IMG/VR virus record: IMGVR_UViG_3300020045_006153
Location: 243,550-307,549 of that record
DNA from: a virus
Lineage: Duplodnaviria > Heunggongvirae > Uroviricota > Caudoviricetes
DNA: 64,000 nucleotides
Strand: one strand, 5' to 3'
Made by a program: the position numbers and the translations under genes. Positions 30,733 through 49,315 of this stretch are shown here, one piece after another; positions within the stretch are counted from its first letter, which is position 1; every line of letters begins with the position of its first letter. The notes under the pieces are model-generated. The model made no database searches. It had not been told where the DNA came from and was given only the letters and a program-made list of their open reading frames with translations.

Positions 30733-33700
30733 ATGACATATAAATTAATAGGGCCTGAGCCGTACCAAGTTCCAACTAACGCAGATTTAGGATCACTAGC
30801 ATATCAAAATAGTGACGGATTGACTTTAGGGCAATTACTTGTATCTAATACTGCTACTATTCAAGGTATTATTACTACTATTCCGGTTGCACAAAGCCAA
30901 CCGGCTACTGGACAATTAATATTATTACAACAAGTTCCTACAAATATTGCAGTAGGTCAATTAGTTTCTGGATCTACGCTTGCTGCTAATACTGTAATTT
31001 CGTCAGTTGTATCGGGTTATTCAACTGTGCAACAAACATTTACGGCAACTACTGCAACAACAATAGTTGCAATGACTGCTACTTATGGAATATCCGCCGG
31101 GCTAGTTGCATATGGTACCGGAATAACATATGGAACAACAGTTAATTCTGTTAGTTCACAATATGCGGTAACAAATTATGCAATTTCTACTTCTACTTCT
31201 AGCGGAAACGTAATATACATTAGCAATACTACAGGAATTGTTGCTAATAGTATGATTATAAATCATCCTAATATTGTTACAGGTACTATTGTTACTAGTG
31301 TAGTTAGTAACTATTCTATCACATTAAACAATGCAGTGTTAGGATCAGTTACATCGGGAGAAATTATTAATGTTGCTCCTACTGTAACATTAAGTTTGCC
31401 TATTACTGCAAATACATTAACGCAATATCTATTACTATATCCGTCAATTACTTTAAATGTAGCATCGTCTAGCCCGGTTCAACAAAATACTATATTAACA
31501 TTTTATCCTAATCCAACATCATACGACAATGCAGCATTAGTTGTAAAAAATGGTGGATTGGGAGTTGCAGGAAAAACATATTTTGCAAACACTGTTACTA
31601 TTACTTCAAATGTAAATGCAGTGAGTACTACTACTGGTGCGTTTGTAGTTGCCGGCGGCGCCGGTATAGGACGAGATTTATACGTTGGCGGAAATATATA
31701 TAAAAATGGTATAAGTATTGGGTTTGGATATAATGGGTCGTTGGGTTTCACTGGTAGTATCGGCTTTGTAGGTTCACAAGGAACAACTGGCTTTGTTGGA
31801 TCACAGGGAACAACTGGTTTTGTAGGAAGTACTGGCTTTATTGGCTCACAGGGAACAACTGGTTTTGTAGGAAGTACTGGCTTTATTGGCTCACAGGGCA
31901 CAACTGGTTTCAATGGATCACAGGGCACAACTGGCTTTATTGGCTCACAAGGAACAACTGGTTTTGTAGGAAGTACTGGCTTTATTGGCTCACAAGGAAC
32001 AACTGGTTTTGTAGGAAGTACTGGTTTCAATGGATCACAGGGCACAACTGGCTTTGTAGGTTCACAAGGAAATATTGGCTTTGTAGGTAGTACTGGCTTT
32101 ATTGGTTCACAAGGCACAACTGGTTTTGTAGGAAGTATTGGCTTTGCAGGTTCACAAGGAAATATCGGTTTTGTTGGATCACAAGGAAATATTGGCTTTG
32201 TAGGAAGTACTGGATTTATTGGTAGTACTGGCACAACTGGTTTTGTAGGTTCTAGAGGTTTTAATGGTAGTACTGGTACAACTGGTTTTGTTGGATCACA
32301 GGGAAATATTGGCTTTGTAGGTAGTACTGGCTTTATTGGTTCACAAGGCACAACTGGTTTTGTAGGAAGTATTGGCTTTGCAGGTTCACAAGGAAATATC
32401 GGTTTTGTTGGCTCACAAGGCACAACTGGTTTTGTAGGAAGTATTGGCTTTGTTGGATCACAGGGAAATATTGGCTTTGTAGGTTCACAAGGAACAACTG
32501 GTTTTGTAGGAAGTATTGGCTTTGTTGGATCACAGGGAAATATTGGCTTTGTAGGTTCACAAGGAACAACTGGTTTTGTAGGAAGTATTGGCTTTATTGG
32601 TAGTACCGGTACAACCGGATTCGTAGGTTCTAGAGGTTTTAATGGTAGTACCGGTACAACTGGTTTCAATGGCTCACAGGGAAATATTGGCTTTGTTGGT
32701 TCACAAGGCCCTACGGTATCAGCCTCACCTACTGCACTAGGCGCAGTATTTGGATATACTACTGGTAATGGAAATACTGCAATTGGGTGCAATGCGGGAA
32801 ATATTACAATGTCTGGTGCTGATAACATTGCAATTGGTAAATGTACATTGCGTGTTAACACTGTTGGATACGGTAATGTTGCAGTCGGCGCATGCTCATT
32901 ATCATGTAATACAACAGGTAATGGAAATACTGCTTTTGGTTCTTGTGCATTAGTGTGTAATTCTACGGGATATTGCAATACTGCAATTGGTATTAGTGCA
33001 TTATATGGTAACGTTGGTGGATACTATAATACTGCTATTGGTTCTAGTTCATTAGAAAATCATGAGTGTGGATTCAATAACGTTGCAGTCGGCTCGTTCT
33101 CATTAAGGTTAAATTCTTCTGGATGTAATAATACTGCTATTGGCTATAGTTCATTATGTTCAAATAGAACCGGATGTGGAAATATTGCAATTGGATCCTG
33201 CTCATTAACAGCAAATTCTTCGGGCATTAATAATACTGTCATTGGTTATCAAGCATTGGTTCTTAATATTACGGGAAATAATAATACTGCTATTGGTTAT
33301 CAAGCAGGATGCTCTGCCAACAACACAACTTTATCTGTATTTCTTGGCGGCTGGCGCGGAACAAGTTTACCTACATCGTGCATGGTTGTGTTATCAGATG
33401 GAACCGGTACAATTAAAATGTTGTTTACTGCCACCGGCGCATTAAGTATTGGCAATACTACTACTAATTTTGGATCAATTGGACAAGGGTTAGTAAGTCA
33501 AGGACCTAACACAGCACCTATTTGGTCTAACAATCCTGGCTTTACTGGTTCAAGTGGTACAGGCTTTACTGGTTCAAGTGGTACAGGCTTTACTGGTTCT
33601 GGCGGTACAGGATTTACCGGTTCAATTGGCTTTACCGGTTCTACAGGGGCAGGGTTTACTGGAAGCAGTGGCGCCGGCGGATCCTCTGCTACTCCTTCCT

Positions 33701-35085
33701 CTTTAGGTAGTGTATTTGGATATACAACAGGTAACGGAAATACTGCAATTGGATGCAATGCGGGAAATATTACAATGTCTGGTGCTAATAATATTGCAAT
33801 CGGGTATGCGGCATTGTGCTCAAATACTACAGGTGCTTGCAATATTGCAATCGGGTACGGTTCATTAAGATGGAATCTTGTAGGTGCATGTAACTTTGCA
33901 TTCGGGTCAAAATCGTTACAAGAAAATCTTACAGGCGATGCTAATATTGCAATAGGATACGGTGCTTCACAATATTCACAAGGTGCAAATGCAAATTTTG
34001 CGCTGGGAGCACGAGCATTAAATAATAATTTAACAGGTGATAATAATATTGCTATCGGCAATTGTACATTAAATTCATTATATGGAGCGTATGGAAATGT
34101 TGCAATTGGCACTAATTCAATGTACGGTAATATTACAGGAGCATGTAATGTAGCAATTGGAATTAACAGTCTTAATAATGCACTAGGTAGCAATAATACT
34201 GCTATCGGATATTGTGCAGGTCGATTAATTACTACTGGTAATAATAATACAGTTATTGGCTCATTGCCCGGCGCACCAGGCTGTGTATGTACTGTATTAA
34301 TTGGAGCAGGTACATGTGAACGTATACGTGTTGATAATAGCGGATTGTATGTTAATAATGCGTTAGTTAGTGCACTTCCTGCTACTACTGCAACATTTGG
34401 AACAGTGGTAGGTTGTACAGAAATTAGTGTATCAGGTAGTACTTTATTAGGATTAAACGCCGGTGCAAATAATAGTAGTAATAGTGGTAATGTTGCAATT
34501 GGGGTTTTAGCATTGTGTAACAATACTGCAGGATTGTATAATGTTGCAGTAGGATCAATGGCATTACTAAACAATATTACAGGGAATCTTAACGTTGCAG
34601 TAGGACAATATGCATTAAAAGATAACTGTAGCGAATTTAATGTTGCAGTAGGAGCAGCATCCTTGAGCACAAATACTCTTGGTATTGGTAATGTTGCAGT
34701 AGGGTATCTTTCTCTTTATAGCAACGTAACAGGGTCATGCAATGTTGCAATTGGCCCCGTGGCGCTCGGCGCTAATATTACAGGAAATTCTAATATTGCG
34801 ATTGGAGATTCTTCATTATACGGAAGTTTAGCAACTAGCAATATAGGAATAGGGAGCCAGTCCGGCTGTGATATCACTACTGGTAATAATAATACAGTTA
34901 TTGGCTCATTGCCCGGCGCACCAGGCTGTGTATGTACTGTATTAATTGGAGCAGGTACATGTGAACGTATACGTGTTGATAATAGCGGATTATATGTTAA
35001 TAATGCGTTAGTATCCGGGGGATCAGGCGGTGGCACAAGTTTAGGATTATCTATAGTTGCATCCGCAGGCTGGTTATTACCGTAA
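30733..35085 (+). CDS. Long fibre protein: Ser/Thr-rich N-terminus, collagen-like tract and three Cys-rich NxAIG beta-roll modules
   Basis: Gly-X-Y 31726-32709; repeated VFGYTTGNGNTAIGCNAG linker and GCVCTVLIGAGTCERIRVDNSGLYVN cap. Confidence 0.8.
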   Translation: MTYKLIGPEPYQVPTNADLGSLAYQNSDGLTLGQLLVSNTATIQGIITTIPVAQSQPATGQLILLQQVPTNIAVGQLVSGSTLAANTVISSVVSGYSTVQQTFTATTATTIVAMTATYGISAGLVAYGTGITYGTTVNSVSSQYAVTNYAISTSTSSGNVIYISNTTGIVANSMIINHPNIVTGTIVTSVVSNYSITLNNAVLGSVTSGEIINVAPTVTLSLPITANTLTQYLLLYPSITLNVASSSPVQQNTILTFYPNPTSYDNAALVVKNGGLGVAGKTYFANTVTITSNVNAVSTTTGAFVVAGGAGIGRDLYVGGNIYKNGISIGFGYNGSLGFTGSIGFVGSQGTTGFVGSQGTTGFVGSTGFIGSQGTTGFVGSTGFIGSQGTTGFNGSQGTTGFIGSQGTTGFVGSTGFIGSQGTTGFVGSTGFNGSQGTTGFVGSQGNIGFVGSTGFIGSQGTTGFVGSIGFAGSQGNIGFVGSQGNIGFVGSTGFIGSTGTTGFVGSRGFNGSTGTTGFVGSQGNIGFVGSTGFIGSQGTTGFVGSIGFAGSQGNIGFVGSQGTTGFVGSIGFVGSQGNIGFVGSQGTTGFVGSIGFVGSQGNIGFVGSQGTTGFVGSIGFIGSTGTTGFVGSRGFNGSTGTTGFNGSQGNIGFVGSQGPTVSASPTALGAVFGYTTGNGNTAIGCNAGNITMSGADNIAIGKCTLRVNTVGYGNVAVGACSLSCNTTGNGNTAFGSCALVCNSTGYCNTAIGISALYGNVGGYYNTAIGSSSLENHECGFNNVAVGSFSLRLNSSGCNNTAIGYSSLCSNRTGCGNIAIGSCSLTANSSGINNTVIGYQALVLNITGNNNTAIGYQAGCSANNTTLSVFLGGWRGTSLPTSCMVVLSDGTGTIKMLFTATGALSIGNTTTNFGSIGQGLVSQGPNTAPIWSNNPGFTGSSGTGFTGSSGTGFTGSGGTGFTGSIGFTGSTGAGFTGSSGAGGSSATPSSLGSVFGYTTGNGNTAIGCNAGNITMSGANNIAIGYAALCSNTTGACNIAIGYGSLRWNLVGACNFAFGSKSLQENLTGDANIAIGYGASQYSQGANANFALGARALNNNLTGDNNIAIGNCTLNSLYGAYGNVAIGTNSMYGNITGACNVAIGINSLNNALGSNNTAIGYCAGRLITTGNNNTVIGSLPGAPGCVCTVLIGAGTCERIRVDNSGLYVNNALVSALPATTATFGTVVGCTEISVSGSTLLGLNAGANNSSNSGNVAIGVLALCNNTAGLYNVAVGSMALLNNITGNLNVAVGQYALKDNCSEFNVAVGAASLSTNTLGIGNVAVGYLSLYSNVTGSCNVAIGPVALGANITGNSNIAIGDSSLYGSLATSNIGIGSQSGCDITTGNNNTVIGSLPGAPGCVCTVLIGAGTCERIRVDNSGLYVNNALVSGGSGGGTSLGLSIVASAGWLLP
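31726..32709 (+). repeat. Collagen-like coding tandem repeat
   Basis: Directly visible; same units as in the other two fibre genes. Confidence 0.95.
34231..35012 (+). repeat. 137-bp direct repeat (34231-34367 and 34876-35012) with one synonymous mismatch
   Basis: Base-by-base comparison; the only difference is ttg versus tta. Confidence 0.9.
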
Positions 35086-36877: not shown

Positions 36878-37813
36878 ATGAAAACAATAATTTATATAGA
36901 TGGCGGCGCTGGCCGAGTTATTGCTGCTATCCCAGCATTATTAAAATATGCAAAATTAAATCCAATTGCTGACTGGAGTATTATTATTCCAGCATGGGAT
37001 AATCTTCTTTGGAGTATTCCAGAGTTGCAAGATCGGACATATGGTGCAGATACTAAAGGTATTTGGGATAATTTAATATCAAAGGCCGACTTGCTATTAT
37101 CTCCGGAACCATATCGCTTGCCTGCATATTATAAACAAGAAATTAGTTTAGTCGAAGCATTTGATAGAGAAATTAATAAAACAACTGATCATTCTGATCT
37201 CGGCACCCCTGTTATGAAATTTAACAAAGCCGAAGAAAAATGGGCAGTTAACACTATTGCTGATGTTAAAACACAACAACAAAAAGCAAAGACTATTGTT
37301 ATTCAACCATTCGGTAGGGGAGCAACATTAGACAGAGCAGATATTGTTGATACAGCAAGTCGTTCACTTAGTGCTGATGCATACATTAACTTAGTAAAGA
37401 AGTTATCCGTAAAATATAATATGATATTTTTTGGCGAGCCACAATTTCAAATTGTAACTGATAGTTATACTGTTAAATTGCCTCCTCAGACTGATCTAAG
37501 AATGTGGGCTGCACTTATTGATGCTGCTGATTATTTTGTAGGAGTCGACTCTGTTGGCCAGCATATGGCCCGTGCAACTAACACTCCTGGTACTGTGATA
37601 TTTGGAAGCACTTTTCCAATTAACACAAGTTTTCCGAACTTTTTTCAAATCCTTGAAAAAGCAGGAAATAAAAAATATAGCCCTATCCGTATTACTGGAT
37701 TAGATTCTGTTCTTGCAGATCGTGCCAATGACACTATGATGGATTTTAACAATGCAGAACTTGATCACATATACAATCAAATTGTGCAAGATATTGAACG
37801 TAAGGTAAGATAA
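36878..37813 (+). CDS. GT9-like (heptosyltransferase superfamily) glycosyltransferase
   Basis: IVIQPFG and ALIDAADYFVGVDSVGQHMARATNTPGTVIFGST match the GT9 C-terminal DS..H.A motif. Confidence 0.7.
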   Translation: MKTIIYIDGGAGRVIAAIPALLKYAKLNPIADWSIIIPAWDNLLWSIPELQDRTYGADTKGIWDNLISKADLLLSPEPYRLPAYYKQEISLVEAFDREINKTTDHSDLGTPVMKFNKAEEKWAVNTIADVKTQQQKAKTIVIQPFGRGATLDRADIVDTASRSLSADAYINLVKKLSVKYNMIFFGEPQFQIVTDSYTVKLPPQTDLRMWAALIDAADYFVGVDSVGQHMARATNTPGTVIFGSTFPINTSFPNFFQILEKAGNKKYSPIRITGLDSVLADRANDTMMDFNNAELDHIYNQIVQDIERKVR

Positions 37814-39525
37814 TGTCGTATTCTGTAATGGGGATAAATCCGGGGCATAATGGCTCCGCAGCACTGGTTATTGACGGAAAAACAGTCTATTATTGCGAAG
37901 AAGAGCGCATAAGTAGGCAGAAATACGACGGCAATCCATTTCGTGCTATGTTGCACATATTAGAAAATTATAAAGTAGACGAAATTATTATAGGTGGCAC
38001 AAGTCCGCATCTTCCTATCCTTCCGTGGACACAAGAAGATCCGTATACTGCGCTTGCACGTAAATTTAATCCAAAAATTAAATCTACAAATATGGGAGAT
38101 CAACATCATATAGGTCATGCTGCTAGTGCATTTTATAATTCTGGATTTAAAAAAGCAACGGCAATTATAGTTGACGGTGCAGGCTCTATTCATTCTGCTA
38201 AGGTAAATGATCAAGGAAATACTGTAGACGGTTATGAAACTGAAAGTGTATATGAATGCAGTTATCCTGCGGTATTTACGGCTTTATATAAACGATATGC
38301 AAATAATAATATTCGTTATTTTAGAAACAGTGTGCAAGAATTTGATAATAGCGTAACACTTACTAAATCGTTTGAAGCAGTTAGTCAACATCTTGGATTT
38401 GGATTTATTGAAGCAGGCAAAACAATGGGCCTTGCTCCTTACGGGAAACCTGATATTAATATTCCTAGTATTTTTTCTGAAGGGAAAGGCAATAAAAATT
38501 TATTAATTCCTCATTATCCAGCAGGTGCACTAATCGATACTTCTCGTTACCCGCAATTGCATCAATCTCGAGATCCTAAAGAATGGCATAAAGATTTTAC
38601 TAAGATTACTGAGATTGAAAAAAATCTAGCATGGAAAGTGCAACAAGAAACTCAACAATTACTTGGTAATTTAATTCAAAGTGTCATTGATATAACTGGC
38701 GAAACTAATTTTGTAATCGCTGGAGGATATGGTTTAAATTGTGTTGCTAATTATTACTTAAAAAGCAGATTTCCTAACATTAATTTATTTGTTGATCCAG
38801 TTGCACATGATGGCGGCACGGCATTAGGTCTTGCAAAACTAGCGTGGTTTAATTATAGCAAATCTGAAATACCTGAACCTCTAGATACGCTATACCTCGG
38901 CACTGAAGATGATTTAACAAAATTAGATAATATAGACCAACTTGCTCAATTAGGTTTATCTACTATTTCGACAACACCTATTGAAATTGCTAAACTAATT
39001 GCTGCCGGGCATATTGTTACAATTTTTCAAGGTAAAGCAGAAGCAGGTCCTCGGGCACTAGGTAATCGCAGTATATTATTTGATCCACGTGTTAAAGATG
39101 GCAAAGCGTATGTTAATCAAGTAAAAGGGCGCGAATGGTTTAGGCCTTTTGCAGGCTCAGTCCTAGAAGATCAAGCAAGTACTTGGTTTGATTTAAAAGG
39201 AATGAAACAATCGCCGTTTATGATGTATGCAGTAGATTTGCAATCGTCGAAGTTGGGAGAACTTCCGGCTATTACTCACGTAGATGGAACATGCCGTGTA
39301 CAAACTGTTGCCCTTACTGATAATTTTCATTATTATACTTTAATAAATGAGTTTTATAAACTAACTGGTGTTCCTGTATTGTTTAATACTAGTTTTAACT
39401 TAGCAGGAGAACCGTTAGTTGATACAATCGAAGATGCAATTAATACTATTCTTAATTGTGATATTAATTATTTGTATTTTCCTGAAATTGGAAAATTAAT
39501 TAGTAAGACTAATCGCAAAATCTAA
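37813..39525 (+). CDS. Carbamoyltransferase (NodU/CmcH/TobZ family)
   Basis: HNGSAAL, EEERISRQK, HHIGHA, DGAG, GKTMGLAPYG, GGYGLNCVAN, EAGPRALGNRSIL, REWFRPFA, HVDGTCRVQTV, NTSFN. Confidence 0.93.
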   Translation: MSYSVMGINPGHNGSAALVIDGKTVYYCEEERISRQKYDGNPFRAMLHILENYKVDEIIIGGTSPHLPILPWTQEDPYTALARKFNPKIKSTNMGDQHHIGHAASAFYNSGFKKATAIIVDGAGSIHSAKVNDQGNTVDGYETESVYECSYPAVFTALYKRYANNNIRYFRNSVQEFDNSVTLTKSFEAVSQHLGFGFIEAGKTMGLAPYGKPDINIPSIFSEGKGNKNLLIPHYPAGALIDTSRYPQLHQSRDPKEWHKDFTKITEIEKNLAWKVQQETQQLLGNLIQSVIDITGETNFVIAGGYGLNCVANYYLKSRFPNINLFVDPVAHDGGTALGLAKLAWFNYSKSEIPEPLDTLYLGTEDDLTKLDNIDQLAQLGLSTISTTPIEIAKLIAAGHIVTIFQGKAEAGPRALGNRSILFDPRVKDGKAYVNQVKGREWFRPFAGSVLEDQASTWFDLKGMKQSPFMMYAVDLQSSKLGELPAITHVDGTCRVQTVALTDNFHYYTLINEFYKLTGVPVLFNTSFNLAGEPLVDTIEDAINTILNCDINYLYFPEIGKLISKTNRKI

Positions 39526-40146
39526 TAGTGTTTCGAACGTTTTAACTTTAGGACGCAACATCATATAAACAGGGGACTTTAGTTTTTCTAAAGTCCTTTT
39601 TCCGTTTCCAGAGAGAATTAATACAGGAGTTGCACCCGCGCGATCTGCCATTAGCAAGTCTTCAATTGAATCACCTACATATACTCCATCTTTAAATTTT
39701 ACTCCTTGAATAGTTGCTTCTGCGTGTTGAAATAATCCTAATTTAGGTTTTGCGTAAATATCTTCTTTTTTATTTGAAGTACTATAATAAATTCCATCAA
39801 TAGAAGTGCACCCTGCTTGACCTAATAAATTAAGCATATGTTGATTTATTGTTTCTACTTCTTGAATAGTAATTTTCTTTTGAGAAATTAATGGCTGATC
39901 AAATAGTACGCACACTTTATGCCCTAATGATCGTATAATTGCAACCGCTCTCATTGCATTTACAATCGGAATAAATTTTTCAGGAGAATTAATAACTCCA
40001 TTTTCTTCATTTAATATGCCGTCTCGATCGAGCCCTATTGTATATTTTTCGAATGTTAATGGAAAAGTTAATTGGCTAGTTAGTAATTGTAGAGGCTGGA
40101 TGTTCTCTGGTGTTACCATATTTTTTTCAACGCTAAATCTTGACAT
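39496..40146 (-). CDS. gmhB: HAD phosphatase, D,D-heptose-1,7-bisphosphate phosphatase-like
   Basis: LDRDGILN motif I, KP motif III, VGDSIEDL motif IV; late promoter TAAATA on - at 40175-40180. Confidence 0.75.
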   Translation of the reverse strand: MSRFSVEKNMVTPENIQPLQLLTSQLTFPLTFEKYTIGLDRDGILNEENGVINSPEKFIPIVNAMRAVAIIRSLGHKVCVLFDQPLISQKKITIQEVETINQHMLNLLGQAGCTSIDGIYYSTSNKKEDIYAKPKLGLFQHAEATIQGVKFKDGVYVGDSIEDLLMADRAGATPVLILSGNGKRTLEKLKSPVYMMLRPKVKTFETLLDFAISLTN

Positions 40147-40196
40147 AGATACCTTTGTGTGATAATTATATGCATATTTAATAAGAACATACTCCT

Positions 40197-41024
40197 ATGA
40201 AAAAAATGCATTTTATTTCTGGTTTACCGAGATCGGGCTCGACGTTGTTGTCTGCAATTTTGAAACAAAATCCAAAATTTACAGCAGGCATTAGTGATCC
40301 ACTACTTGATTTTACAAAAGGGTATATCACTGCTATTGCTGGTTCAGTAGGAATGGCTTCGCAGGTGCCTCGTGAAAAACAAAAAGATCTTATATTAGAT
40401 TGCTTTCATTCATTTTATAAGAATAATAACGACATATGTTTTAATACAAATCGAGGATGGGCATCTCATACACCGTTAGTTAAACAATTATTCCCACAGG
40501 CAAAAATGATATTATGCATAAGAGAAATTCCTTGGATACTTGATAGTTTTGAACAATTAAATGTTAAGAATCCGTTTACAATTAAGCCATTATATAATCA
40601 TCAAGATTTAGGTACAGTATATGATCGATCTAAAATGTTAATGGGCGACATGCCTAATTTCGGAGGATATGTTATGAGTCCGCTTGCAAATACTAAACAA
40701 GCAATGTATTCAAACGAGAAAGATATGTTATGTATAATTGAATATAACACATTAGTGAATCACCCAAAAGAAGTAATGCAGTCATTGTATAAATTTTTAG
40801 ATGAAGAATGGTTTGAGCATGATTTTGATAATGTAGAAGATAGTTATGATGAGTTTGATGACCAAGCAAAAATTGTAGGATTGCATACTGTAAAACGTAA
40901 GGTGCAATACTATCCTAGAAAACCAATATTACCTGAAGATTTATGGCAACATTATGCAAATCAATCGTTTTGGAAAAATAATTTTGAACATATGAAACGA
41001 CAATTATATTGGATCGGTCAATGA
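40197..41024 (+). CDS. PAPS-dependent sulfotransferase
   Basis: 5'-PSB loop GLPRSGSTLL; R..S 3'-phosphate motif (IREIPWILDS); YxxLVxxP. Confidence 0.85.
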   Translation: MKKMHFISGLPRSGSTLLSAILKQNPKFTAGISDPLLDFTKGYITAIAGSVGMASQVPREKQKDLILDCFHSFYKNNNDICFNTNRGWASHTPLVKQLFPQAKMILCIREIPWILDSFEQLNVKNPFTIKPLYNHQDLGTVYDRSKMLMGDMPNFGGYVMSPLANTKQAMYSNEKDMLCIIEYNTLVNHPKEVMQSLYKFLDEEWFEHDFDNVEDSYDEFDDQAKIVGLHTVKRKVQYYPRKPILPEDLWQHYANQSFWKNNFEHMKRQLYWIGQ

Positions 41025-41944
41025 GGCCGTTGGGCGGCAGCGAATTAGCAATGCATGAACTTATCACTCATGTTGACGTTAATTGGCAACCCAATATTAA
41101 TTTAATATTATCTACATGTCAACCGGAATTAATTGACCCTACTAAAATTAACGTAGTTTGGCAACAACTAAGTTATGACCAAGACAATGTTAAATTAATG
41201 GCAGATCAAACGTTTGTTGATCAAATTGATTATTTTGTATATGTATCTAATTGGAATCATGAAAAATTCAGGTATCATTATAATACTCCGGGCAATAAAT
41301 CATTAGTAATTAAAAATGCAACTCGTGGCTTTAATAAATTTACAAAACCGAATAATAAAAAATTAAAATTAATTTATACATCTACACCATGGCGTGGCCT
41401 TGAAATACTACTTCCCGCATTTGAATTACTGAATAGAGATGATGTAGAACTTGAAATTTATTCGTCTTCGATTATATATGGATCTGGGTTCCATCAATTA
41501 TACGGAGACAAGTATACTGAATTATTTGATTATGCTAAATCTTTAAAAAATGTAAAGTACATGGGGTATTCTTCAAATACTGGAGTAAGAAAAGCATTAG
41601 AGACTGCCCATATTTTTGCATATCCGTGCATTTTTGAAGAAACAAGTTGTATGTCAGCAATAGAAGCAGCAGCAGCCGGCTGTCAACTAGTTACTACTAA
41701 TTATGGTGCATTGTATGAAACATGTGCAGAGTGGGCAACATACGTTCCGTTTAATCCTAATCGTGTGCAATTAGTTAAAGACTATGCTAACATACTAAAT
41801 GATGTAATTGATAACTATTGGACATTAGAAAATCAAAATAAATTAGAATCACAGGTAGAATATTACAACAAATTTTATTCATGGAATGTTCGAGCAACAC
41901 AATGGGGAGATTTTTTTGACAGAATTATTAAAGAAAAAACGTAA
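41021..41944 (+). CDS. GT-B (GT4-like) glycosyltransferase
   Basis: GGSE, YTSTPWRGL, YPCIFEETSCMSAIEAAAAG (E-x7-E); ATGA overlap with the sulfotransferase stop. Confidence 0.85.
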   Translation: MRPLGGSELAMHELITHVDVNWQPNINLILSTCQPELIDPTKINVVWQQLSYDQDNVKLMADQTFVDQIDYFVYVSNWNHEKFRYHYNTPGNKSLVIKNATRGFNKFTKPNNKKLKLIYTSTPWRGLEILLPAFELLNRDDVELEIYSSSIIYGSGFHQLYGDKYTELFDYAKSLKNVKYMGYSSNTGVRKALETAHIFAYPCIFEETSCMSAIEAAAAGCQLVTTNYGALYETCAEWATYVPFNPNRVQLVKDYANILNDVIDNYWTLENQNKLESQVEYYNKFYSWNVRATQWGDFFDRIIKEKT

Positions 41945-42659
41945 AGTAATGATTGGATCACCGTCATATGACGGTAATATTAATGTTTGGTACGCAAACA
42001 GTTTAATGCAAACTATTAAATTAGCAGAAAGTCTTGATATAGAAATTATTCCGATTTGGATAAGTTTTGATGCATTAATACAACGTGCACGAAATGATAC
42101 TATTGCAATTGCAATTGAGCAAGATGTTGATGACTTAATATGGATAGATACTGATATAGAATGGAAACCAGAATGGTTTTTTAAATTATTAGATTATCCT
42201 GTCGATGTTGTCGGTGGTACTTATCCTAAAAAAGGAGATAACGAAATGTATGTCGTTAATTTAGGTAATTATAATGGACACCGAGATCCAATTACAGGCC
42301 TTATACAAGTAGCAGGATTAGGTACTGGATTTTTACGATTTAGTAAAAAAGCATGCAAGTGGTTATGGGAAAATAGCCCGCCTTATAATGAACCTGAAAA
42401 AGGCAATTCGCATAAACGATGGATTTTTGAGGTAGTTATTAAAAATGCAGACTTAATAAGTGAAGATATTTGGGTATGTAAACGGCTAACTGAAGAAGCT
42501 GGTATATCAGTTTATCTTGATCCGACTATTACATGTAATCATGTAGGTGGAAAGAAATATACAGGCGACTTTTTAACATGGGTTACTAATTCTAGAACTC
42601 CTAATATTTCACCAAGGATTGATTCAGGAATTAAATACTTGACTAACTATTTAAAATAA
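41886..42659 (+). CDS. GT-A (GT2-like) glycosyltransferase; start codon uncertain
   Basis: IQRARN, WIDTD (DxD), GTGFL, SEDIWVC, CNHVG. Confidence 0.7.
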   Translation: MFEQHNGEIFLTELLKKKRKVMIGSPSYDGNINVWYANSLMQTIKLAESLDIEIIPIWISFDALIQRARNDTIAIAIEQDVDDLIWIDTDIEWKPEWFFKLLDYPVDVVGGTYPKKGDNEMYVVNLGNYNGHRDPITGLIQVAGLGTGFLRFSKKACKWLWENSPPYNEPEKGNSHKRWIFEVVIKNADLISEDIWVCKRLTEEAGISVYLDPTITCNHVGGKKYTGDFLTWVTNSRTPNISPRIDSGIKYLTNYLK

Positions 42660-42660
42660 T

Positions 42661-43365
42661 ATGCAAATTCAATCAACACCTACAACACGAACAGTCATAA
42701 TTGCAACTCATTGTCCAAATAATACAGTAGAATCGTATTACGCACATAGTCTTGCAGATAGCATTTATGTATTCGCTCAACATAATATTCGAATTATTCC
42801 ATTATTTATTAATGATATTCAGTTATCAGTGGTTGCTAAAAATGAAATAATTCCAGTTGTACTAGAAAATGAATGTGAATCAGTAATATTTGTAGATTAC
42901 AATTTAGCGTGGGATCCGTATACATTGCTTGATATTGTTAATTCTAAATATGACGCAGTTGCTATACCGGTTACTAAAAAAGTTCCAGGAAATGTAATTT
43001 TTGATTTAGACATTGGATTAGACTACAAAACAGATAATAATGGTTATATTAGTGTAAACTATGCAAGCCTTGCAATGTTTAAATTAAGTTATTCATTATT
43101 GACTGCGCTAACTGATTCAAGTATATCGATTACTAATCCGTCAGGTAAGGAAGTAAAAAACGTTTTTGAATACGATACATCTCGAGGAAAATTCTTTAAT
43201 GATAGTATTGTATTATGTAATAAAATTAAAAATTTAGGATTTACAGTATGGATTAATCCTAAAACTACATGTGCAAATATTGCCGATAATATATATGCGG
43301 CTGATTTTGCAGCAACACTTATTAATATTCCTAAATCTGATCAAATTCGATCATTATACGAATAA
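42661..43365 (+). CDS. Divergent paralog of the preceding GT-A protein
   Basis: AKNEI, IFVDYNLAW, NDSIVLC..G..VWINP align with the upstream ORF, but the DxD and ED motifs are degenerate. Confidence 0.55.
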   Translation: MQIQSTPTTRTVIIATHCPNNTVESYYAHSLADSIYVFAQHNIRIIPLFINDIQLSVVAKNEIIPVVLENECESVIFVDYNLAWDPYTLLDIVNSKYDAVAIPVTKKVPGNVIFDLDIGLDYKTDNNGYISVNYASLAMFKLSYSLLTALTDSSISITNPSGKEVKNVFEYDTSRGKFFNDSIVLCNKIKNLGFTVWINPKTTCANIADNIYAADFAATLINIPKSDQIRSLYE

Positions 43366-43397
43366 ATATATAAGTTAATTTTCATTAGGAGAAATAT

Positions 43398-43697
43398 ATG
43401 ACAACAATTACAGACGTATCAACACTAACCACAGAAATTGTTATTACCCCTCGAGTAGTATCAACTGAATTTAAAATTGTAGAAATAACTGAAAATATTG
43501 CAAATCGAGTAGTTCGAGTAGAAATTGAACTTGGACCATTTACATCTGATAATTCAGATAGTGATAATTCTACAATGAGGGGATTAGGTCGCCGTTCAGT
43601 TGTAGCATGGAGAGGTGACGAGTATGATGCTGTTCGTGATACATGGAAAAATGCAGATCTTATTGCGCAAGTAACTGCGAAATTGCAAGTAATTTAA
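43398..43697 (+). CDS. Hypothetical late protein
   Basis: TAAATA 43363, AGGAG SD. Confidence 0.7.
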   Translation: MTTITDVSTLTTEIVITPRVVSTEFKIVEITENIANRVVRVEIELGPFTSDNSDSDNSTMRGLGRRSVVAWRGDEYDAVRDTWKNADLIAQVTAKLQVI

Positions 43698-43755
43698 CGG
43701 CTTATTTCTTTATACTAGGAACCTCTTGTATATTCATATATACTAATAAACATAT

Positions 43756-45087
43756 ATGAATAATACTAACAGAGTATTTGGTATGGTAACATCCAAATCA
43801 TCGGAATTTTACACAGATTGGGCATTGAAAAGTTTATTTGAAAATACTCGATTTCAATCAACTGATTCTATCTTCTTAATTGATAACGATAATTCGTATT
43901 GTCGTAACTCTCACGGTAAACTTAAAGTATTAAGAAATCAACATCCATTAACATTTGCTGAAAATGTTAATCAATTGATTCGACTTGCAAAAGAAAAGGA
44001 TGCTGATTTAATCTTTTTAAGTAACGATATTATTCTAACTCCGGGGTGGTTAGATCCCCTTGAACAAATAGAGAATGCAATAACAATTCCATCCTGTAAT
44101 CAAACTCACCAATACAGTTGGTTAAAACCTAATATGAGTTGGGAAGAATACGATGATAACTTTGTAGGCTTATGTGATATTTCGAATCACCATACACAAC
44201 AGGTTACTGGATATTATGATTTATTGTTAATGGCATTTTATGTATTTCGCCTACCTAAATCAGTATATACTGTATTAGGTGAAATGGATACTACGTTTGT
44301 AAACGGCGGAGAAGATTTGGATTACAGGATTCGCGCAATACTTGCGGGAGTAGATGTAAAATATGCTGCTCAAAGTTATGTCTTGCATTTTAATGGAATA
44401 TCAACTTGGCGTAAAGAAGATCCAATTAAACTTGCGCAACATAATAACGCATACCGAAATCAATTATCTAATAAATGGGGTAATGATTTAATGAATTTGT
44501 TAGTAGTAAGCGGTAATCCAAATGCTGTACTAACTAAGCATAATTTAATGAGTTTCAACCAAACAACTGATTCTCATAATGAATTAATTAAAAATATTTA
44601 CTTGTTAACTAGAAATAATATAGCATTTAAATTGAGTGTGGTGTATCATAAATTAACATCTGAAGTTAGACAAGAAATTATATCAATGTGGTTAACTGAA
44701 GGAGCATTAGATATAAAAGAAGCAACTCGCAGGGTCGACGAAGTAGTAGTAATTGCTAGAAACGAGCAAAATCAACTAGTAGGAGTAACGTCGGTTCAAA
44801 TAGATATGATCAACAATACTCCTTATTACTTTTTTAGAATGTATGTAAGGCAACAAAATCGCAATAGATCAATTCCTCGTTCATCACCTGTTATGTCGAA
44901 TCTAACTGTTGATTTTTTATCAACATATGAAGTAACACCTAAACCGACAGGTGTTGTCTCTATATTAGATAATCCAAAATTGAGTAATCGAATTATGGAA
45001 ACGTTTGGGTGGAATTATTACGGCATTAGTCCAATTGGTAAATCTATTTGGTATAAGAATTTTGATGGATCTAAAAATGACTTGTAG
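43756..45087 (+). CDS. GT2-family glycosyltransferase with a C-terminal GNAT-like domain
   Basis: IDND, FAENVN, LSNDI, GGEDLDY..R, VLHF; C-terminal VIARNE..LVGV..FFRMYV is GNAT-like (weaker call). Confidence 0.7.
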   Translation: MNNTNRVFGMVTSKSSEFYTDWALKSLFENTRFQSTDSIFLIDNDNSYCRNSHGKLKVLRNQHPLTFAENVNQLIRLAKEKDADLIFLSNDIILTPGWLDPLEQIENAITIPSCNQTHQYSWLKPNMSWEEYDDNFVGLCDISNHHTQQVTGYYDLLLMAFYVFRLPKSVYTVLGEMDTTFVNGGEDLDYRIRAILAGVDVKYAAQSYVLHFNGISTWRKEDPIKLAQHNNAYRNQLSNKWGNDLMNLLVVSGNPNAVLTKHNLMSFNQTTDSHNELIKNIYLLTRNNIAFKLSVVYHKLTSEVRQEIISMWLTEGALDIKEATRRVDEVVVIARNEQNQLVGVTSVQIDMINNTPYYFFRMYVRQQNRNRSIPRSSPVMSNLTVDFLSTYEVTPKPTGVVSILDNPKLSNRIMETFGWNYYGISPIGKSIWYKNFDGSKNDL

Positions 45088-45502
45088 AATTTTAATTATG
45101 GGGTTGCCCGGATCAGGTAAAACAACGTTGGCAGCAGTATTGGCCTCTCATTTATCAGCATTTTGGATCAATGCTGATGAAATTAGAAATCAATATAACG
45201 ATTGGGATTTTAGTGAAGCAGGTAGACTACGTCAAAGTCAACGTATGCGTACATTATGTGATTTAAGTCCGTTGACTTTTCAAGTCGCAGATTTTGTTGC
45301 ACCTATACCTGAAATGCGTAAAATATTTGCAGCAGATTATACTATTTGGGTCGACACTATTAAATCTGGACGCTACGAAGATACTAATAAGTTATTTGTC
45401 CCTCCATTTGAAGATGAATATGACTTTAGAATAAAACAACAAAATGCGAAGATTTGGGGCAGAGCAATTGCTGAAATTATATTAGAAGATTGTAGTGAGT
45501 GA
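45077..45502 (+). CDS. cysC: Short adenylylsulfate (APS) kinase-like P-loop kinase
   Basis: MGLPGSGKTTLA, NADEIR, DFSEAGR, DFVAP..R, F.PP; followed by DUF2061. Start at 45077 or 45065. Confidence 0.7.
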   Translation: MTCRILIMGLPGSGKTTLAAVLASHLSAFWINADEIRNQYNDWDFSEAGRLRQSQRMRTLCDLSPLTFQVADFVAPIPEMRKIFAADYTIWVDTIKSGRYEDTNKLFVPPFEDEYDFRIKQQNAKIWGRAIAEIILEDCSE

Positions 45503-45701
45503 TCGCCCTGTTCGTAGTCTTGCAAAAGCAGTTAGTTGGAGAATAACTGGCACAATTGATACATTTCTAGTATCTTGGCTCGTTACTGGAGAACCACTAA
45601 TTGCTAGTGGAATTGCATTGGCTGAAATTATGACAAAGGTATTTTTATTTTGGTTACACGAACGTGTATGGAATAAAATTAAATGGGGTAGATTAAATTA
45701 A
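45495..45701 (+). CDS. DUF2061 small membrane protein
   Basis: RSLAKAVSWRITGTIDT...HERVWNKI; GTG start. Confidence 0.85.
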   Translation: MSDRPVRSLAKAVSWRITGTIDTFLVSWLVTGEPLIASGIALAEIMTKVFLFWLHERVWNKIKWGRLN

Positions 45702-46133
45702 TTCTAACAACAGTTCTAATTTAGTTTTAATAATTTTATTCCCTAAACTAGAACGAACTCCACGATGTAACGGCTTGGGCCAAGATCCGATATCACACCA
45801 TGCGTATCCACTATGTTCATCATTAAGTAATGGAGTAAACTCTTTATCGACTAGCATTACATACGTATTGTATTGAAATTTTTCATCGTTGCTAGTAAAT
45901 AATTCAAGTGGTATAACTTTTTTAATAGGTGGAGTTCTGCCTACTTCTTCGGATATTTCTCTCATTAATGTATCATACGGAGTTAAGTCGTGCGGCTCTT
46001 TTTTGCCTCCAACTAATCCCCAAGTTCCTGCAGTCTTTGCTTGAGTCCTAAGTAAGAATAAAAATCTTTTAGTATCTTTTGCTAAAAACAATCCCCCAGA
46101 ACATATAATTTCTGTTATAGAATTAAACGCCAT
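45693..46133 (-). CDS. Nudix hydrolase
   Basis: WGLVGGKKE...LMREISEEVG Nudix box; LNDEHSGYAW. Confidence 0.88.
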   Translation of the reverse strand: MAFNSITEIICSGGLFLAKDTKRFLFLLRTQAKTAGTWGLVGGKKEPHDLTPYDTLMREISEEVGRTPPIKKVIPLELFTSNDEKFQYNTYVMLVDKEFTPLLNDEHSGYAWCDIGSWPKPLHRGVRSSLGNKIIKTKLELLLELI

Positions 46134-47500
46134 TTTTCTTTATCGTAAATACCTTCAAACGACTTGGCCCATTCTTGCCCGTTCCATTTGTATTGTATGC
46201 CTGTATATGCATTAGTTATATAAGTGGTGTTACTAATTGTAATTGAATTGAATATAATAACCCAACTAGTTCCGTTGTATTCAATAATGTCGTTTGCAGA
46301 AGCACTGAAAGTAGAACCCCATGCATCTGTTCCTATTCCGATATCTTCTAAAATAAGATAACGAGTACCGGCGGTAATTGAAGTAGGATTAACCGTTTGT
46401 GGATTTATAATTGCGTTAATTGTTCCGCTAGTTATGATCGGCCCTACTAGTGAAGTATTTGTTGAGACAGTATCTTGGTCAATGTTTAAACTCATTAACG
46501 ATTCGTTAGTTGGGTTTAAAGTTAAGTAAGCAACAATTTCGTGACCGTCTGTTTTTGCTAATCTTAACTGGCTTAACCCTGATGTAAACTTGCCGGGATA
46601 TAAATCGAGCAATTCTAACCAAGAAGGGCGATTAGGAACATTGTCAACGCTTGTCCAACCTTCGCTAACATTTTGTTCACCCGCAGGCACTAGAACAGCA
46701 ACATTATTCAAAACAAGTAAATCGTAATCCATTGGGGTTACTACTATTTTAGCAACAGGCGTAGATCCACTAAAGAAATCAGATCCATTAATAGCATCTT
46801 CATATCCACCGCTTGATCCTGTATTAATTGGTTCTGCAAAAACATTTGCTATTATTTTAGTAATAATACCTAGTTTTTTTACTTTAACTGGAGTTGAAAT
46901 CCATGCCGGTGCAGTAAATTGTAGAGTAGCAATGCTCAAATCGTTTGTTGCGCCTTGGGGAATAGTTCTAGATTCAAATACGCAATTATCTGTTAGTTCT
47001 AAGACACTTAAACTGCTCCAATCGATATAATTATCCGAGGTTTGAAATTCAATACTTGGATTAAACAATACTGTAATTTGTTCCCATAGTTGTAATTTTT
47101 GATCTAAACTAGTTGTCCAAATATCTACATTAAATGTAATAATATACGGAGTTGGCATTAACTTTTCAACTGTATAATTTGCACCTTGAGTGTTTAAATA
47201 TTCTTTACCTTGTGAATCGTATGCGCGTTCTCTGAAACTTTGTGACTGCACAAATGTAGGATCTTGAATTCGAGTGCGATCAAACTTTAAATCCTTTATG
47301 TACACTGCAATAAACGGTGCACTTTGCATTATATTTTCGGAATTTTTATTAACAATGCTTGCAACTTGTTTGTTCATATCGCCAAATCGTACAGGCACTT
47401 GAACTAATTGCCCTTTTGCATCTTTGTAACTAAAGTTACTAAAGAAGCGCATTACTTGTGTTAAGTAACGTTTGATTTGTCCATCATAAAAGAAGTCCAT
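46115..47500 (-). CDS. gp15: Tail terminator/sheath stabiliser with C-terminal extension (T4 gp15-like)
   Basis: FFYDGQIKRY, VPVRFG, MPTPY, QKLQLWEQI..LFNP; follows gp14. Confidence 0.75.
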   Translation of the reverse strand: MDFFYDGQIKRYLTQVMRFFSNFSYKDAKGQLVQVPVRFGDMNKQVASIVNKNSENIMQSAPFIAVYIKDLKFDRTRIQDPTFVQSQSFRERAYDSQGKEYLNTQGANYTVEKLMPTPYIITFNVDIWTTSLDQKLQLWEQITVLFNPSIEFQTSDNYIDWSSLSVLELTDNCVFESRTIPQGATNDLSIATLQFTAPAWISTPVKVKKLGIITKIIANVFAEPINTGSSGGYEDAINGSDFFSGSTPVAKIVVTPMDYDLLVLNNVAVLVPAGEQNVSEGWTSVDNVPNRPSWLELLDLYPGKFTSGLSQLRLAKTDGHEIVAYLTLNPTNESLMSLNIDQDTVSTNTSLVGPIITSGTINAIINPQTVNPTSITAGTRYLILEDIGIGTDAWGSTFSASANDIIEYNGTSWVIIFNSITISNTTYITNAYTGIQYKWNGQEWAKSFEGIYDKEKWRLIL

Positions 47501-48676: not shown

Positions 48677-49315
48677 TTATGGCTGTTTTGTTTTACAGTT
48701 ATCACCATGCCATCTAAAGAAATTAGTGCCAGCAACTGCTTTGCTGCAATGAATGCATGTATATTTTGTCCTATTTTGTGCCTTCTCTCGTATCTTGTTT
48801 AATGTTATGAGAGAATGCGATTTACCTTGATTCCATGTACCTACTGTATCAGCGACTGCTTTACGACGAATAGACATTAATTCTTTTTCTTCTGATGTTC
48901 TAGGTATACCTTTATTCCAAGCAACATTTCCAGTATTTGCTTTTGATATTTTTTGTTTTGTTTCTGCAGATGTAACTACCCCTTGTCTAGTGGATCCGAA
49001 TTGCTTTCTTAAAAATTCATAAGTGTGCGAACACGGGTAATACCTGTCTTGAAAATCTGCACCTTTAACGGTCATTCTCCATACTGCACGTTTCATTTTT
49101 ATTAGACTAAGACCTTCGGTCATTTTAGTTAATAATCTATGACAAATAAAATGTTCTCGCGCAGTTAATTTTACTAAATTATCTTTGAAGTTGCTTCCTC
49201 CTATGCTTTTAGGAATAATATGATGTTTTTCAGAATATCCAATAATAGATGATCGACTTTGAGCGCGATTAATAATTTGAGTATACCAAGTGGTATACTT
49301 GTTAGGTAAATACAT
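48677..49315 (-). mobile_element. Free-standing HNH homing endonuclease, paralog of 16124-16804
   Basis: EKHHIIPKSIGG..NLVKLTAREHFICHRLL; SAETKQKISKA and WNKG repeats; CIHC..WHGDNC. Confidence 0.88.

Follow-up and report, generated by a model that had tools for sequence, protein, structure and literature searches.

What a tailed phage makes with a set of sugar-transferring and sugar-tailoring enzymes, and onto which acceptor it places the product, is the question raised by a gene cluster that we analysed in a window of 64,000 nucleotides (the whole stretch studied, bases 243,550–307,549 of a 353,233-bp IMG/VR record; positions below are those of the window unless otherwise given). The record derives from an uncultured virus and has an estimated completeness of 99% (CheckV). 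Its source is a T4-like phage of a jumbo lineage, the isolates closest by gp15 being the jumbo phages Phosso, Atu_ph07 and the PA5oct group (33–36% identity); psbA was not found in the genome, so the source is not a cyanophage. The cluster proper spans 36878–45701 and is flanked by fibre genes and by a Nudix–gp15–gp14 neck block, and all of the genes that a preliminary description of the sequence had placed between fibre and neck were recovered at the positions it gave. A megablast search with the cluster as query returned no match among 50,697 phage records. We tentatively favour the view that these genes encode a cytoplasmic system for building and tailoring a glycan, with a protein of the virion as its most plausible target.

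The interpretation is anchored by the first gene of the cluster (36878..37813, plus strand; phrog_8954), whose product was classified by Pfam, PHROG, an AlphaFold2 model and fold searches. By sequence, the Pfam match (PF01075, E = 5e-8) is restricted to the C-terminal, donor-binding part of the protein, and a PDB search with the single sequence gave nothing informative. The AlphaFold2 model, built on 57 homologs (pLDDT 97.7), superimposes on the GT9 enzymes 3TOV of Veillonella (Z = 24.9), WaaF (22.2), TibC (21.3) and WaaC (~20), as against Z ≤ 12 for GT-B folds outside GT9, and the first 30 listed ranks of a Foldseek search with it are all GT9 enzymes. The model places the transferase in the GT9 fold, and we take it to be the core enzyme of the cluster; it probably transfers heptose.

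Conservation of motifs, scored over 57 sequences of the family, shows that the donor motif D224-S225-x3-H229 is invariant or nearly so, and aligns to the D-[ST]-G-x-x-H motif of WaaC/WaaF. The position of the GT9 catalytic-base aspartate, at the start of helix 1 (Asp13 of WaaC, Asp110 of TibC), is occupied by Arg13, an equivalence drawn from sequence alignment together with the aligned ranges. Arg13 might bind an anionic acceptor, and another acidic residue may serve as the base; the candidates are D158, which is invariant, and E77 (within E77-P78-Y79) or E119, both near-invariant. The nearest named families by sequence are the lipopolysaccharide (LPS) heptosyltransferases III/RfaQ/I and WaaF/WaaC, although the corresponding NCBIfam equivalogs score only 22–33 bits against cut-offs of 170–467. 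Nor is this a TibC-type enzyme, because the protein contains no cysteine and lacks the TibC N-terminal barrel (its alignment to TibC begins at TibC residue 97). We have consequently filed the transferase as a GT9-fold enzyme outside both functional subfamilies (LPS heptosyltransferases and BAHT). The family is small and mostly viral, mainly phage-borne in the collections searched, with 352 representative clusters retrieved from 1.84 billion proteins at E ≤ 0.001.

The second gene (37813..39525, plus strand), whose start overlaps the stop codon of the transferase gene, encodes an O-carbamoyltransferase of the NodU/CmcH/TobZ family. Both Pfam domains score above cut-off (Carbam_trans_C, E = 1e-58, 198 bits; Carbam_trans_N, E = 1e-22, 81 bits) and the protein shows an HHxGH motif; the NodU equivalog, at 138 bits against a cut-off of 1000, is out of reach. 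Convergent to it lies a gene for a HAD-IIIA phosphatase (39496..40146, minus strand), which we call GmhB-like: among NCBIfam models it fits best to NF006506, for heptose 1,7-bisphosphate phosphatase (E = 4e-24), at 85 bits below the 178-bit cut-off, and it passes the general HAD-IIIA model TIGR01662 (64 bits versus 44.6). A hairpin with a 12-bp stem (39571–39599), terminator-like on both strands, sits just past the carbamoyltransferase stop and falls within the 3′ coding part of the phosphatase gene. The divergent intergenic region between the phosphatase and the sulfotransferase that follows (40147..40196) holds a conserved TATTTAATA (TATTAAATA on the minus strand).

A heptose chemistry is proposed because the GT9 fold and the GmhB-like gene occur together here, and because homologous cassettes exist in other phages. 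The heptose proteins of cyanophage P-SSM2 had no tblastn match in this genome, and a SIS_2 domain search of the genome likewise found none. Two nucleotidyltransferase matches were considered as phage HldE candidates and set aside, one being a NadM–Nudix protein and the other an unassigned 445-aa protein.

Three further genes would equip the phage for sulfation. The PAPS (3′-phosphoadenosine 5′-phosphosulfate)-dependent sulfotransferase (40197..41024, plus strand) is the sole one in the genome; it matches Sulfotransfer_3 (PF13469) at 54.6 bits against a cut-off of 27 (E = 2e-14) and carries the 5′-phosphosulfate-binding loop PRSGST at residues 11–16. Among proteins of solved structure, protein-tyrosine sulfotransferases come closest to it (E = 1e-4), a match confined mainly to the PAPS-binding motifs. 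At the far end of the cluster lies a short P-loop kinase resembling adenosine 5′-phosphosulfate (APS) kinase (45077..45502, plus strand), with 141 aa compared with ~175–211 aa for the stand-alone APS kinases of solved structure that it matches. Alone it is marginal on PF01583 (22.0 bits, cut-off 21.1) and falls short of TIGR00455 (18 bits, cut-off 139); its ortholog in the relative locus L007 reaches 50 bits on PF01583. When the PDB was searched with a profile built from 13 orthologs, almost all of the top 24 matches proved to be APS kinases or PAPS synthetases, the strongest at E = 3e-10 and covering residues 6–87. The short kinase is presumed, from these matches, to supply PAPS. The adjoining gene (45495..45701, plus strand) encodes a small hydrophobic DUF2061 protein (E = 2e-21) that is fused to the kinase in the relative L010; an APS_kinase domain is present in 12 of 22 longer DUF2061 homologs, in either domain order, with some of the fusion partners being canonical CysC-type kinases (one on a 1.8-Mb contig). 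From this pattern of fusions we designate DUF2061 as the predicted partner of APS kinase; a literature search on DUF2061 turned up nothing informative.

The remaining enzymes are glycosyltransferases. One is of GT4 type (GT-B fold; 41009..41944, plus strand) and is a clear Pfam match. It is followed on the same strand by two paralogous GT-A open reading frames (BLASTP E = 1e-18), of which the first (41886..42659; phrog_1574) has an intact D-x-D motif (D88, D90), whereas the second, diverged copy (42661..43365) reads D-Y-N at this place and may be inactive or altered. The first was modelled with AlphaFold (pLDDT 86) and adopts a GT-A fold, for which the top PDB match is glycosyltransferase A197 of Sulfolobus turreted icosahedral virus (STIV), with further matches to the collagen galactosyl- and glucosyltransferases COLGALT1 and LH3, to mimivirus R699 and to the capsid-glycosylating enzyme A64R of Paramecium bursaria chlorella virus 1 (PBCV-1). 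These matches came from the fold search alone, a sequence profile of the GT-A family having found none in the PDB. The last transferase, orf443 (43756..45087, plus strand), appears to fuse a GT2-like GT-A domain (approximately residues 1–280) to a GNAT-like acyltransferase (approximately residues 285–443), as judged from a weak Pfam match (E = 0.006) and protein-atlas leads (feature score 0.97, TM 0.85); a PDB search with the single sequence was uninformative. A hydropathy scan detected no membrane-spanning segment in any enzyme of the cluster (DUF2061 being borderline), and no cluster gene was recognised as encoding a flippase, a polymerase, an ABC exporter or a priming transferase. Every enzyme listed in the preliminary description (GT9-like, NodU-type, GmhB-like, sulfotransferase, GT4, two GT-A, GT2–GNAT, APS kinase and DUF2061) is thus encoded, and the inventory upholds the chemistry it had deduced, namely a carbamoylated and sulfated glycan with a phage-made supply of PAPS.

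Elsewhere in the genome we observed five genes for NAD-dependent epimerases/dehydratases (G000:C1, 110.7–113.2 kb, 154.5 kb and 164.5 kb), which suggests further nucleotide-sugar clusters; these could act as donor suppliers for the GT4, GT-A and GT2 enzymes. A GT2 domain (E = 4e-22; G000:C1:48092–48544) also occurs outside the window, within an open frame of 1580 aa, perhaps a single giant protein with an internal sugar transferase; it lies ~8 kb from collagen-like GFxGS repeats at 38–40 kb.

Comparison with other viral genomes indicates which parts of the cluster belong together. Gene by gene, against six close IMG/VR relatives, the cluster is kept at 47–84% amino acid identity with frames intact, its order being rearranged in one subgroup; the GT9-like gene is the most conserved of the region (81–84% identity, versus 56–64% for gp15 and 57–76% for the gp14-like gene). 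The relative G003 (354,680 bp, 100% complete) carries the same cluster, with a GT9-like protein 81% identical to ours. A wider profile scan, from an alignment of 12 transferase sequences, found the GT9-like transferase encoded on at least 594 IMG/VR viral stretches, and 84 loci were examined. In 74 of these 84 the carbamoyltransferase gene begins 0.9 kb downstream of the point where the transferase gene begins, and the GmhB-like gene is present in 51. Two accessory sets occur besides: one for ADP-heptose (HldE adenylyltransferase at 23 loci, kinase at 21, cupin at 27, epimerase at 26) and one for sulfation (sulfotransferase 24, GT4 23, GT-A 23, APS kinase 18, orf99 14, orf443 11). Both sets occur together at one locus (L095); another (L021) has a minimal cassette of transferase plus GmhB-like gene adjoining Nudix–gp15–gp14. 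The core is the pair of GT9-like transferase and carbamoyltransferase, usually with the GmhB-like gene, and it recombines with either accessory set.

As to its position, the cassette lies in tail/fibre modules in three phage lineages (jumbo, cyanomyovirus and 78–79-kb myovirus). In cyanomyoviruses it is found among tail-fibre genes, and in S-CAM1 next to gp13–15; in Aeromonas and Vibrio myoviruses of 78–79 kb, among them the 79-kb Aeromonas phage HJ05, the transferase gene occurs alone, with a fibre-like gene on one side and the gene for the tail sheath on the other. The largest open reading frames upstream of the cassette (42 loci) belong mostly to virion, tail-spike or tail-fibre PHROGs.

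Within the cluster we also identified a small gene that was missing from the earlier gene list, orf99 (43398..43697, plus strand; ~100 aa), which is preceded by a GGAG ribosome-binding site and, near −35, by a late-type promoter that serves it separately (AATAAATA). TAAATA precedes its homologs at all 14 loci scored, over a background of 2.8%, and their ribosome-binding sites are mostly of the AAGGAG type; these signals suggest an abundant late protein. The ends of the protein are conserved (ELGPF ... RRG..VW..YDAVRDTW) around a variable loop rich in Ser, Thr, Asp and Pro. Homologs include L005:14101–14397 and L029:13529–13825, and a second form with an insertion is found in L008–L010, L019 and L030. 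No relative was found in Pfam, NCBIfam, PHROG or the PDB; orf99 is a candidate structural partner or acceptor. Across the cluster as a whole, TAAATA stands within 45 nt upstream of 3 of 11 genes, compared with 13 of 38 surrounding genes and 2% of random 45-nt windows. The several late promoters first reported thus amount to three, at the rate of the neighbouring genes; the full late motif TATAAATA is nowhere inside the cluster.

We propose the following scheme. The GT9-like enzyme would transfer heptose, or a sugar closely related to it, to the acceptor, using ADP-heptose made by the host, with the phage phosphatase boosting the step from bisphosphate to 1-phosphate. The carbamoyltransferase would then O-carbamoylate the added sugar, in the manner proposed for WapO on heptose II of the Pseudomonas LPS core; the other transferases would lengthen the chain and the GNAT domain would acylate it. 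The kinase would convert host APS to PAPS, from which the sulfotransferase would add sulfate. The acceptor would be a particle protein from the tail-fibre/neck region that receives its glycan in the cytoplasm, prior to assembly, with the late protein orf99 as a further candidate partner or acceptor. A virion target is favoured because the enzymes look soluble, no exporter was found, TAAATA occurs at the rate of the neighbouring genes, and the cassette holds a tail/fibre position in three lineages. Precedents exist: the GT9-fold enzyme TibC heptosylates autotransporter proteins (PMC4358343), and mycobacteriophages glycosylate capsid and tail-tube proteins, according to work cited in PMC12619734.

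Several observations weigh against this scheme, and one group of them concerns the acceptor. The preliminary description had placed the glycan on the collagen-like and beta-roll fibres encoded upstream, where three giant fibre genes include GFxGSx collagen-like tracts of 90, 58 and 47 GFxGS units and at least the last includes, in addition, a beta-roll region that contains Cys and is made up of NTAIG-type repeats. The pattern GFxGS is matched 244 times in the genome as a whole (further GFxGSx genes lie at 38–40 kb and 172–174 kb), against 0–1 times in G003, which has the cluster; the repeats were accordingly rejected as a specific link, since the co-occurrence of cluster and repeats fails, and the fibre-repeat part of the original proposal is not supported, while its virion target stands, on solubility, position and TAAATA, as the best available reading. 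A looser link, to collagen-like proteins of any type, may exist; such a protein is present in three of four genomes (the fourth being 54% complete). In G003 the tracts are exclusively of the classical GPK-GDT-GTQ kind and lie at 300–304 kb, ~100 kb from the cluster, and in G001 the repeats read GYxGSx instead of GFxGSx. The beta-roll module was rejected as a specific partner in its turn, for it is generic: it recurs in Pelagibacter, Roseobacter, Bacillus and Staphylococcus phages, and its listed matches show no overlap with the listed carriers of the GT9-like gene. The fibre genes directly upstream of the cluster also vary among close relatives. In L010 the neighbours are S74-chaperone fibres, and in L007 (734–9917; relative G001) the cluster extends upstream into three RCC1-repeat proteins, a DUF4376 protein, two methyltransferases, a CxxCxxCC protein, a GT2 enzyme and a second sulfotransferase.

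Other points on this side concern donor, chemistry and expression. No gene for GmhA, HldE or ATP sulfurylase was found in the genome, so that ADP-heptose and APS would need to come from the host, and ADP-heptose is a predicted donor; the heptose reading of the preliminary description retains the GT9 fold and the GmhB-like gene in its favour, and has the lack of GmhA and HldE against it. Arginine occupies the catalytic-base position in 52 of 57 family members, and lysine in two more. As Arg replaces Asp at the GT9 base position, both chemistry and acceptor may be unusual. Consensus sigma-70 and terminator scans gave signals not above those of shuffled sequence. In L009, L010 and L019 a sigma-70-like pair stands ~40–70 nt upstream of the GT9-like start (TTGACT, 17 nt, TATATT; in L019 TTGATC, 17 nt, TATAAT), hinting at earlier expression in these relatives; the window itself has no such pair before the gene, and a short palindrome (ACACTA..TAGTGT) instead. 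The conserved position may merely reflect a hyperplastic insertion site of T4-like genomes. To our knowledge, finally, no glycan has been detected to date on any phage that bears the cassette.

The same evidence has to be read against other targets. The enzymes could remodel the host envelope, adding a carbamoylated, sulfated heptose-type unit to LPS core or another glycolipid at the cytoplasmic face, with export by the host; such a change might block superinfection, or keep progeny from sticking to debris. The combination of a GT9 enzyme, a NodU-type carbamoyltransferase and heptose genes is indeed the gene content of the Pseudomonas inner core (PMC8005017), the nearest named sequence families are LPS heptosyltransferases, and the literature labels such genes "LPS" (PMC3037559) or "cell-wall modification" genes (PMC12801897); LPS core assembly, moreover, requires no dedicated exporter, and the sigma-70-like sites before the transferase gene in some relatives speak on the same side. 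We regard an envelope target as a serious rival, but a less likely one. Cyanophages carry the same core pair, and since cyanobacterial LPS contains neither heptose nor Kdo (3-deoxy-D-manno-oct-2-ulosonic acid) as GT9 acceptors (PMC4515613), the cyanophage members of the family cannot use the canonical LPS-core acceptor. Arginine at the catalytic Asp position of the LPS heptosyltransferases, and scores that are all far below their equivalog cut-offs, argue in the same direction, as do a TAAATA rate equal to that of the neighbouring structural genes and the residence of the cassette within tail operons, even in a compact 79-kb phage. In apparently lytic T4-like phages, newly made LPS would also form only a small share of the cell surface.

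An acceptor of another kind in the cytoplasm seems improbable to us, whether a soluble small molecule (a sulfated, carbamoylated glycoside serving as signal, inhibitor or store) or protein tyrosine, to be sulfated. The names of the carbamoyltransferase family recall the tailoring of antibiotics and Nod factors, the solved relatives of the sulfotransferase act on tyrosine, arginine at the catalytic-base position would suit an anionic or atypical acceptor, and co-occurrence with GFxGS repeats and beta-rolls yielded no acceptor; yet the cluster encodes no maker of an aglycone or scaffold and is consistently embedded in virion modules, and the tyrosine match, mainly to PAPS motifs, arises from enzymes that are simply the Sulfotransfer_3 members with structures. 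Hypermodification of phage DNA by glycosylated, carbamoylated or sulfated bases is very improbable. Reviews describe phage glycosyltransferases that modify DNA, and phage carbamoyltransferases acting on 5-hydroxymethylcytosine are on record, but the thymidylate synthase family is represented by a single gene, a true ThyA (342 bits, above the equivalog cut-off), which leaves the genome with no hydroxymethylase to supply the DNA substrate; the cluster lies in the late structural region, away from the replication genes, and we know of no GT9-fold enzyme that acts on DNA. That the cluster is non-functional, host-derived "stuffer" DNA, as raised for such genes in PMC3037559, is scarcely credible when frames remain intact at 47–84% identity in relatives that carry different fibre genes alongside, the earlier ones having been replaced, when catalytic and donor-binding motifs are invariant over 57 family members, when the gene pair is conserved at 74 of 84 loci, and when the family is small and mainly phage-borne.

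The downstream limit of the cluster was drawn by comparison with Pseudomonas phage Paride. A Nudix hydrolase gene (45693..46133, minus strand; a clear Pfam match) overlaps the gp15 gene on the minus strand and had been counted in the preliminary description as part of the glycan system. Its product is 44% identical to that of the gene following gp15 in Paride, and no glycan genes were found in the annotated stretch of Paride that carries the Nudix–gp15–gp14-like block. Because Nudix adjoins gp15 there with no glycan genes alongside, we assign it to an ancestral neck block, outside the cluster, and use it as the boundary marker. Beyond it come the gp15-type tail sheath stabiliser (46115–47500, minus strand), a gp14-like structural gene and, between this and the next structural gene, an HNH/NUMOD3 homing endonuclease (48677–49315, minus strand). 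The endonuclease has no counterpart at the same position in six close relatives, and is for this reason probably a recent insertion. On the fibre side, the NTAIG-repeat beta-roll of the protein encoded at 30733–35085 is studded with cysteines; this protein and that encoded at 22722–26627 contain 2.2% and 1.4% Cys, compared with 0–0.5% in most neighbours.

For some twenty years the "LPS genes" of marine phages have stood in gene lists without an explanation, and the target decides what they mean. Were the particle modified, sugar, carbamoyl and sulfate groups on the fibres of these abundant aquatic phages would affect host recognition, stability and stickiness in water, and the transferase–carbamoyltransferase pair would define a new protein-glycosylation system; were the target host LPS, apparently lytic phages would be remodelling the cell surface. 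The question can be put directly to cultured cyanophages that carry the core pair, such as P-SSM2, S-CAM1 and S-SSM7, and the cassette offers testable handles in its core with interchangeable accessory sets, its PAPS-supply module, the Arg-for-Asp change and the late small partner protein. Taken all together (several T4-like lineages decorating a tail-fibre/neck protein with a heptose-based glycan, here carbamoylated and sulfated, through a phage-specific, Arg-for-Asp branch of GT9, with PAPS from a kinase–DUF2061 module and orf99 as acceptor or adaptor), the picture is a conjecture that we hold with considerable doubt; if true, it would give bacterial viruses their first described sulfated glycoprotein and their first described case of protein heptosylation.

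Comparison with characterized systems shows where the cluster is familiar and where it departs. As in Nod-factor tailoring (NodU, NodH, NodQ), carbamoylation, sulfation and APS kinase are encoded together, with a kinship only at the level of families (NodU, 138 versus 1000 bits; NoeE, E = 2e-4); unlike the Nod system, the phage cluster has no chitin-oligomer synthase, and its kinase is short and paired with DUF2061. Viruses with glycosylated virions (mycobacteriophages, PBCV-1, STIV and mimivirus, with its fibrils) resemble it in encoding soluble glycosyltransferases near structural genes, although their glycans, unlike the one predicted here, are chemically proven. No such system known to us combines heptose-type, carbamoyl and sulfate chemistry, nor do we know of a heptosylated phage protein. 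With TibC/TibA and Aah/AIDA-I the phage transferase shares solubility and the GT9 fold (TibC, Z = 21.3, root-mean-square deviation 2.9 over 265 residues). TibC-type enzymes heptosylate a surface protein of repetitive sequence whose gene adjoins their own; TibC, however, has an N-terminal beta-barrel and a four-cysteine iron finger (PMC4358343), both absent from the phage enzyme, in which Asp110 of TibC is replaced by Arg. The Pseudomonas LPS inner core is likewise served by a GT9-fold enzyme (WaaC/WaaF) plus a NodU-family carbamoyltransferase, WapO/PA5005, the putative 7-O-carbamoyltransferase of heptose II, with 7-O-carbamoyl-heptose as expected product (PMC8005017). Here again the phage transferase differs in its Arg at the catalytic Asp and in scoring far below the equivalog cut-offs. 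The phage cluster also lacks any Kdo or lipid A context and adds sulfation, a modification that the description of the Pseudomonas core (PMC8005017) does not mention.

The closest counterpart is the cyanophage "LPS gene" cassette (P-SSM2 PSSM2_307–313, T4-GC 302–308; also in S-SSM7, S-SM2, S-CAM1 and S-CAM3), which has been known since 2005–2010 and is uncharacterised. Sullivan et al. described the co-occurring genes as of unknown function and possibly stuffer (PMC3037559), and a later paper called such genes cell-wall modification genes without testing this (PMC12801897). Both cassettes have the GT9-like gene (35% identity) directly followed by the carbamoyltransferase gene (44%), amid tail-fibre genes. 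The cyanophage version includes an HldE adenylyltransferase, a kinase, GmhA, an epimerase and a cupin, whereas the window has only the GmhB-like gene from the heptose genes and carries instead the sulfotransferase, APS kinase–DUF2061, GT4, the GT-A paralogs and GT2–GNAT. The carrier differs as well, being of a jumbo lineage with its gp15 nearest to Phosso, Atu_ph07 and PA5oct and with no psbA, and the window is a sulfation variant, in this other lineage, of a cassette that had been described but not characterised.

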